From the NCBI RefSeq assembly GCF_003334405.1, contig NZ_QOWM01000001.1: a DNA stretch of 64,000 nucleotides; one strand, written 5' to 3'. A program made the translations under genes and the position numbers. Below, one piece after another: positions 52,744-52,843 of this stretch; the first letter of the stretch is position 1; each line of letters starts with the position of its first letter. This stretch comes from Escherichia coli. GTDB lineage: Bacteria; Pseudomonadota; Gammaproteobacteria; Enterobacterales; Enterobacteriaceae. The notes below the pieces were generated by a model. That model had not been told where the DNA came from. It worked only from the letters and a program-made list of their open reading frames with translations, and did no database searches.

Positions 52744-52759
52744 TGTGAAAAGATTCACA
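52744..52759. promoter_or_regulatory. Candidate CRP site upstream of preT
   Basis: tgtga-aaagat-tcaca, perfect consensus arms, about 95 bp upstream of the preT start. Confidence 0.4.
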
Positions 52760-52843
52760 AATAGCTGCGGTTAGGAATGTGATATCCGCAGCTTATCAGG
52801 TGAAGTAATAATTATTCTCAATAATTAACTGGAGAGGGGAATA

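Follow-up and report, generated by a model that had tools for sequence, protein, structure and literature searches.

The spacer ahead of the preTA operon of Escherichia coli carries a perfect palindromic box for cAMP-CRP and, a few bases further upstream, a GC-rich inverted repeat. PreTA, the dihydropyrimidine dehydrogenase of gut bacteria, inactivates 5-fluorouracil (bioRxiv 10.1101/820084; PMC11185696), so that the way its expression responds to the carbon source bears on how drugs are metabolized in the gut. Neither of these two preTA/5-fluorouracil papers mentions CRP.

Our analysis covers a stretch of 64,000 nucleotides, here called the window. Its sequence is that of E. coli K-12 in the opposite orientation, so that a window position subtracted from 2286683 gives the position in MG1655. 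The genes cdd, sanA (53086..53805), yeiS (DUF2542; 52844..53083), preT (51412..52650) and preA follow one another in this order on the minus strand, and yeiS is the co-directional upstream neighbor of preT, the first gene of preTA. The preA frame, also on the minus strand, follows preT and overlaps its 3′ end; in the list of open reading frames it extends upstream to a TTG at 51424 (413 aa), and the RefSeq product has 411 aa. The old names of preT and preTA are yeiT and yeiTA (PMC3105977). The yeiS–preT spacer, 52651..52843, is 193 nt long and 100% identical to that of MG1655, and the 701 bases surrounding the CRP box were matched in 5425 of the 5426 complete E. coli genomes, with preT, yeiS and sanA as the annotated genes. 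An Rfam scan of 52400–53200 retrieved no family, the single hit being a chance snoRNA match (E = 7.5).

The cAMP-CRP box of preTA

The box TGTGAAAAGATTCACA, at 52744..52759, serves the minus-strand preTA promoter. Its half-sites had been called perfect in the initial annotation, and both a reading of the sequence and a pattern search bear this out: TGTGA and TCACA flank the spacer AAAGAT, and 10/10 half-site bases match the consensus TGTGA-N6-TCACA. The distance to the preT start, given earlier as about 95 bp, measures 94 nt from the box edge to the ATG, and 101.5 nt from the box center. Perfect consensus boxes are rare at this scale, with two in the 64-kb window against 0.07 expected (100 shuffles, none of them with at least two). 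The second one, at 46068..46083, is the known mglB site. When one mismatch was allowed, the scan also found the CRP sites of galS (44923–44938) and cdd (54899–54914), both of which are present in the RegulonDB listing (PMC3105977 supplement). The four CRP-controlled promoters of preTA, mglB, galS and cdd lie within 10 kb.

The initial annotation was right that a CRP site ties preTA to catabolite control, but its premise that such control was undocumented does not hold. Shimada et al. (2011) include yeiT in their Table 1 among the RegulonDB CRP targets that were also recovered by genomic SELEX, and their Table S3 reports a SELEX peak, 'yeiS> >yeiTA', carrying the box TGTGAAAAGATTCACA, which places cAMP-CRP binding between yeiS and yeiTA (PMC3105977). 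The RegulonDB record reproduced in their Table S4 gives CRP as an activator of yeiTA at −57.5, with the sequences TGTGAATCTTTTCACA / cgcagctattTGTGAATCTTTTCACAgtttaaattc, which contain the same 16-mer (PMC3105977). The CRP link of preTA is thus already known, having been in RegulonDB since before 2011 and verified by SELEX, and as a finding it is not of a new kind. With binding published and activation catalogued in RegulonDB, the 16-mer at 52744..52759 is very probably the cAMP-CRP activator site already on record for the preTA promoter. The primary source of the RegulonDB yeiTA entry may be Zheng et al. 2004 (NAR).

A genome scan for PreT gave 19 enterobacterial loci, from Escherichia species, the Citrobacter freundii group and Pseudocitrobacter. 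Four further lineages were added via distant PreT proteins: C. amalonaticus, those of two proteins that bear the names [Enterobacter] lignolyticus and Kluyvera cryocrescens, and that of a multispecies Enterobacteriaceae protein. Perfect TGTGA-N6-TCACA is found in 19/19 scan loci and in all four added lineages. Across these 23 distinct loci, which span several genera, both half-sites are invariant, and the 6-nt spacer and the flanks diverge. The box lies 92–124 nt from the preT ATG, and further away where an insertion intervenes.

At a PreT locus labelled Salmonella enterica (GCA_007258435.1), no CRP box was found within 450 bp. The PreT homologue of this assembly (76% identity) and its preA sit downstream of a pertactin-type autotransporter gene, not of sanA–yeiS. 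Because this locus lacks the box, the CRP link appears to be tied to the cdd–sanA–preTA neighborhood and not to the genes themselves. As a separate observation, the lineages without yeiS (L025, L027, L028 and L029) share a conserved block, exemplified by TTATTGCGYAAA-N-TTNNTATTTGCRTCTTA, approximately 60–110 nt upstream of the CRP box. Among its motifs are TTGCGCAA and TTTGCAT, which resemble half-sites of CytR or PurR; E. coli has no equivalent of the block.

In the mechanism that we propose, scarce glucose would lead cAMP-CRP to bind the perfect palindrome and to recruit σ70 RNA polymerase at preTA, and reductive pyrimidine catabolism would thereby join the catabolite-controlled group of its neighbors cdd and mglBAC. 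Measurable effects are missing at many SELEX and ChIP CRP sites, and CRP might accordingly occupy the box here without regulatory consequence, or act as a roadblock or repressor instead of an activator. We regard this as very improbable, given that RegulonDB labels the site as that of an activator, that the perfect consensus, with a −10-like hexamer at constant spacing, is conserved in several genera, and that preTA co-varies with CRP-activated genes.

This co-variation can be seen in published expression values. In Table S7 of Cho et al. (2014), which compares the wild type with an rpoS mutant in stationary phase, preT and preA climb from log2 6.4–6.9 to 11.7 in the mutant, and mglBAC rises in parallel. 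The increases of yeiS (6.6 to 8.8) and sanA (6.4 to 7.6) are far smaller. Since preT and preA rise far above yeiS and sanA, these data, although circumstantial, fit a separate σ70, CRP-type preTA promoter and not read-through from yeiS. Equally circumstantial is the finding of two proteomes that PreT goes up together with Mal, Tdc and LamB proteins. For this region, the ChIP-exo supplement of Latif (2018) lists only the end of the sanA–yeiS transcription unit. The σ28 SELEX signal reported for yeiT was set aside as not relevant, being weak and located within the open reading frame.

Geometry of the preTA promoter

When the loci are aligned on the CRP box, the hexamer TAGCCT is the sole other sharply conserved block. 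In the window, it occupies 52717..52722 (minus strand), 21 nt downstream of the box, and it recurs at offsets 38–43 from the box in 22 of the 23 distinct loci, the exception being displaced by a 1-nt deletion. The conserved offset makes it a candidate −10 hexamer. The gap of 21 nt is that of a class II promoter, where the −10 element lies about 21 nt past the 16-mer and no separate −35 element is present. TAGCCT agrees with TATAAT at three of six positions, keeping T−12, A−11 and T−7. If it serves as the −10 element, the spacing would set the transcription start at 52709..52710 (minus strand), place CRP at −41.5/−42.5 and leave a 5′ UTR of about 59 nt. An A-G dinucleotide recurs at offsets 51–52 in most loci. 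Since TAGCCT, exactly 21 nt from the box, is the only promoter element shared by all lineages, we favor a class II promoter, with CRP at −41.5/−42.5 and a start near 52709, over a class I promoter, and we would give the class II arrangement an even chance.

The RegulonDB position of −57.5 implies a start at approximately 52694 instead, and it departs from the class II position as well as from the canonical one of class I. It can be read as pointing to a class I promoter on the same CRP site, in which CRP, at about −58 to −61.5, would contact the α-CTD, the −10 element would be CATTAT or TATTAT within 52697–52705, and transcription would start at 52690–52694. The alternative hexamer TATTAT, at 52697..52702 (minus strand), would put CRP at −61.5, in class I phase. 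Class I promoters have CRP centered near −61.5, or else −72.5, −82.5 or −92.5, upstream of a −35/−10 promoter. A −10-like hexamer of this kind (TATTAT, AATATT or TATATT) is present at offset 58–63 in all Escherichia loci, even those with insertions further downstream, although in E. whittamii it is shifted one base upstream, and it is a better −10-like match than TAGCCT. Outside Escherichia, however, it is found in just 1 of 11 loci, and in the four most distant lineages nothing −10-like lies between TAGCCT and the ribosome-binding region or hairpin. Moreover, no acceptable −35 element was located 16–18 bp upstream of the offset 58–63 hexamer, and −57.5 is itself off the preferred helical phase. 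The class I arrangement retains a sizeable chance, which we place somewhat below even. A role of TAGCCT as the −35 partner of the downstream TATTAT was also considered and rejected, the spacer being just 15 bp and the TT being lost in the distant lineages.

As far as the sequence comparison goes, the catalogued −57.5 geometry is probably imprecise. With the CRP link itself already documented, the remaining value of our analysis lies in this pointer that the catalogued geometry may be wrong, and in the side observations.

The stem-loop between yeiS and the box

The second element of the spacer had been described as an inverted repeat, AGCTGCGG / CCGCAGCT, with 14 nt between its arms and an end at 52792. 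The 8-bp arms are real, at 52763–52770 and 52786–52793, but the spacer between them is 15 nt and the end is at 52793. The resulting stem-loop, AGCUGCGG-(15 nt)-CCGCAGCU (52763..52793, minus strand), lies in the 3′ region of yeiS. It starts 50 nt past the yeiS stop codon, and its other end comes within 3 nt of the CRP box, on the upstream side. Folded as RNA in the preT sense, it reaches −13.5 kcal/mol (z = −4.5), a value equalled by none of 200 shuffles.

Its stem of 8 bp with six G-C pairs, downstream of a gene end, is what an intrinsic terminator would have. Canonical terminators also have a loop of 3–8 nt and a U-tract with at least 5 U in the 8 nt directly after the stem. The consensus terminator scan did not call the hairpin, whose loop is 15 nt and whose tail, AUUUGUGA, has 4 U in 8, and the long loop together with the interrupted U-tract rules out a canonical intrinsic terminator. 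A repeat of the REP/BIME type is likewise ruled out, as the hairpin is single-copy: in 5423 E. coli genomes it occupies a median of one place per genome, and at most 2. In the supplementary files of Adams et al. (2021) that were searched, no 3′ end near yeiS, sanA or preT was found.

Among seven Escherichia sequences, the pairing of the stem is 100% kept. The stem changes comprise a C-G to U-A double substitution in E. albertii and an A-U to G·U change in strain E69. Whereas 6 of the 15 loop columns vary, all three changing stem columns retain their pairing. The covariation test draws on a single double change and falls short of significance, its value being reached by 62/500 shuffles. In the Citrobacter freundii group, which also has yeiS upstream, a different stem-loop occupies the same region, GGGAUUAAUGCUG-N5-CAGCAUUUCCC (AATGCTG and CAGCATT around the N5 loop), with a fold of −13.6 kcal/mol and two U·G variants. 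Its arm spacing and its distance to the box differ from those in Escherichia, and it has no U-tract. Three stem changes affect one arm alone, and each of them gives a wobble pair on the preT-sense strand but would give an A-C mismatch on the opposite one. The lineages with sanA directly before preT have no hairpin, yet they keep the CRP box and TAGCCT.

The hairpin is consequently not part of the CRP site; it is a separate, lineage-specific element, confined to lineages with yeiS upstream. The wobbles restricted to the sense strand and the distribution linked to yeiS give weak support to an RNA element, as against a DNA operator held in common with the CRP site. In the most likely reading, whose probability we put just short of even, the sanA–yeiS transcript would carry this stem-loop at its 3′ end, where it would act as a weak terminator or a 3′-end stabilizer and keep yeiS apart from the preTA promoter.

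A perfect 8-bp inverted repeat 3 bp from a CRP box, conserved within Escherichia and located where upstream factors and the α-CTD act, could also be a DNA operator, through which a dimeric regulator would modulate CRP-dependent activation from just upstream of the box. We consider this improbable. The Citrobacter element differs in sequence, in arm spacing and in distance to the box, and other genera lack the palindrome though their CRP box and TAGCCT are kept. In addition, the three one-sided changes, tolerated as G·U pairs in the sense RNA, would be A-C mismatches in a symmetric DNA site, and no match to a known regulator motif was recognized.

It is also conceivable, but unlikely, that the hairpin has no function, being a chance or relic palindrome that the close kinship of the Escherichia sequences has kept. 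The insignificant covariation (62/500 shuffles) agrees with this, as do its lack in several genera, the IS1 copy inside the hairpin loop of strain TUM2820 and the fact that it was not called as a terminator. On the other hand, a chance palindrome would hardly fold so much more stably than its shuffles (z −4.5), nor does it account for a loop in which 6 of 15 columns vary above a stem whose 3 changing columns all stay paired, including the double substitution of E. albertii, or for the second, unrelated hairpin that Citrobacter has at this place.

The preT leader, natural insertions and known systems

A further inverted repeat, CCUUAAU-N10-AUUAAGG (52656..52682, minus strand), lies in the preT 5′ UTR, its 5′ arm being at 52676–52682 and its 3′ arm overlapping the Shine-Dalgarno sequence AAGGAAG. 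It is near-invariant in Escherichia, Citrobacter, Pseudocitrobacter and the lineages labelled Pluralibacter and Kluyvera (L003–L021 and L025–L029), and the surrounding leader varies in sequence and length. The fold of the 71-nt leader is weak, at −4.9 kcal/mol, and no better than those of shuffles. Judging from its position and conservation, the repeat could sequester the ribosome-binding site or be an operator. Taken together, these elements would make up a class II preTA promoter, a leader of about 59 nt with a conserved hairpin (CCUUAAU...AUUAAGG) that sequesters the Shine-Dalgarno sequence for translational control, and an upstream stem-loop acting as an RNA insulator between yeiS and preTA. 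That this combined picture holds in every part is rather doubtful. If it were true, the RegulonDB annotation would have to be revised, and an uncharacterized leader element would be added to preTA.

Upstream of the stem-loop, the spacer contains AT-rich overlapping palindromes, AATAATTA / TAATTATT (52807..52827), which resemble a Fur box at 13 of 19 positions. This is the best Fur-box match in the spacer, and a score as high is reached in about 7% of windows of equal size, which makes the match weak evidence alone. For Fur, a second published regulator of preTA, an anaerobic ChIP-seq peak at preT and a Fur-dependent anaerobic activation of preTA have been reported (PMC4676285), and the palindromes plausibly underlie the published peak.

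Natural insertions also occur in this region. Natural isolates of E. coli show two independent IS1 copies in the yeiS–preT spacer. The AT-rich Fur-like region holds one (L002, NZ_CP062895.1; equivalent to window 52822–52832), and the hairpin loop holds the other (L032, NZ_CP135688.1; equivalent to 52773–52781), which comes with a 9-bp target duplication and sits 14 bp from the CRP box on its upstream side. Strain TUM2820 and the Res13 isolates are examples of strains that have IS1 in the spacer. In some Escherichia lineages, the preT leader holds insertions of 70–170 bp on the downstream side of the promoter hexamers (L004, ~2260–2470; L005, ~2300–2470; L007, ~2390–2460). Those of L004 and L005 match the ERIC2 primer sequence at 18/22 and 17/22 positions, respectively, and are probably ERIC elements; that of L007 has no ERIC2 primer match. 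The natural IS1 and ERIC-like insertions in the spacer could make preTA expression differ between strains.

Among known systems, intrinsic terminators resemble the upstream hairpin in having a GC-rich stem, here of 8 bp, past a stop codon and followed by a U-containing tail, here AUUUGUGAAUCUUUU. Unlike them, the hairpin has a loop of 15 nt and a U-tract that is weak and interrupted. The CytR/CRP promoters of the nucleoside genes (cdd, udp, deoP2, nupG and tsx) share with preTA a related pathway and activation by CRP, and cdd itself lies two genes upstream, with its CRP site at 54899 containing one mismatch. In contrast to these promoters, preTA has one CRP box, and no CytR-like TGCAA repeats are seen in the E. 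coli spacer. A tandem CRP architecture of the CytR type was considered and rejected, as just a TCACC half-site is read about 52 bp upstream.

Class I promoters of the lac type (CRP at −61.5) are like preTA in their single CRP site, their σ70 promoter and their poor −35 element, and the −10-like hexamer of Escherichia stands in the −61.5 phase. They differ from preTA in that its −61.5-phase hexamer is not conserved outside Escherichia, and in that the RegulonDB position is −57.5. The mglBAC promoter, a class II promoter with CRP at −41.5 in RegulonDB (PMC3105977), lies in the window as well, at a distance of approximately 6.7 kb. Compared with that of mglB, the hexamer of preT makes a much weaker −10 element, and the RegulonDB position of the preT site is −57.5 and not −41.5. 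The spacing of the two promoters is nonetheless the same: at mglB, exactly 21 nt separate the box (46068–46083) from TATGAT (46105–46110), and at preT the same gap leads to TAGCCT. Both promoters are CRP-activated targets in RegulonDB, both were recovered by SELEX, and the two rise together in the rpoS-mutant data.
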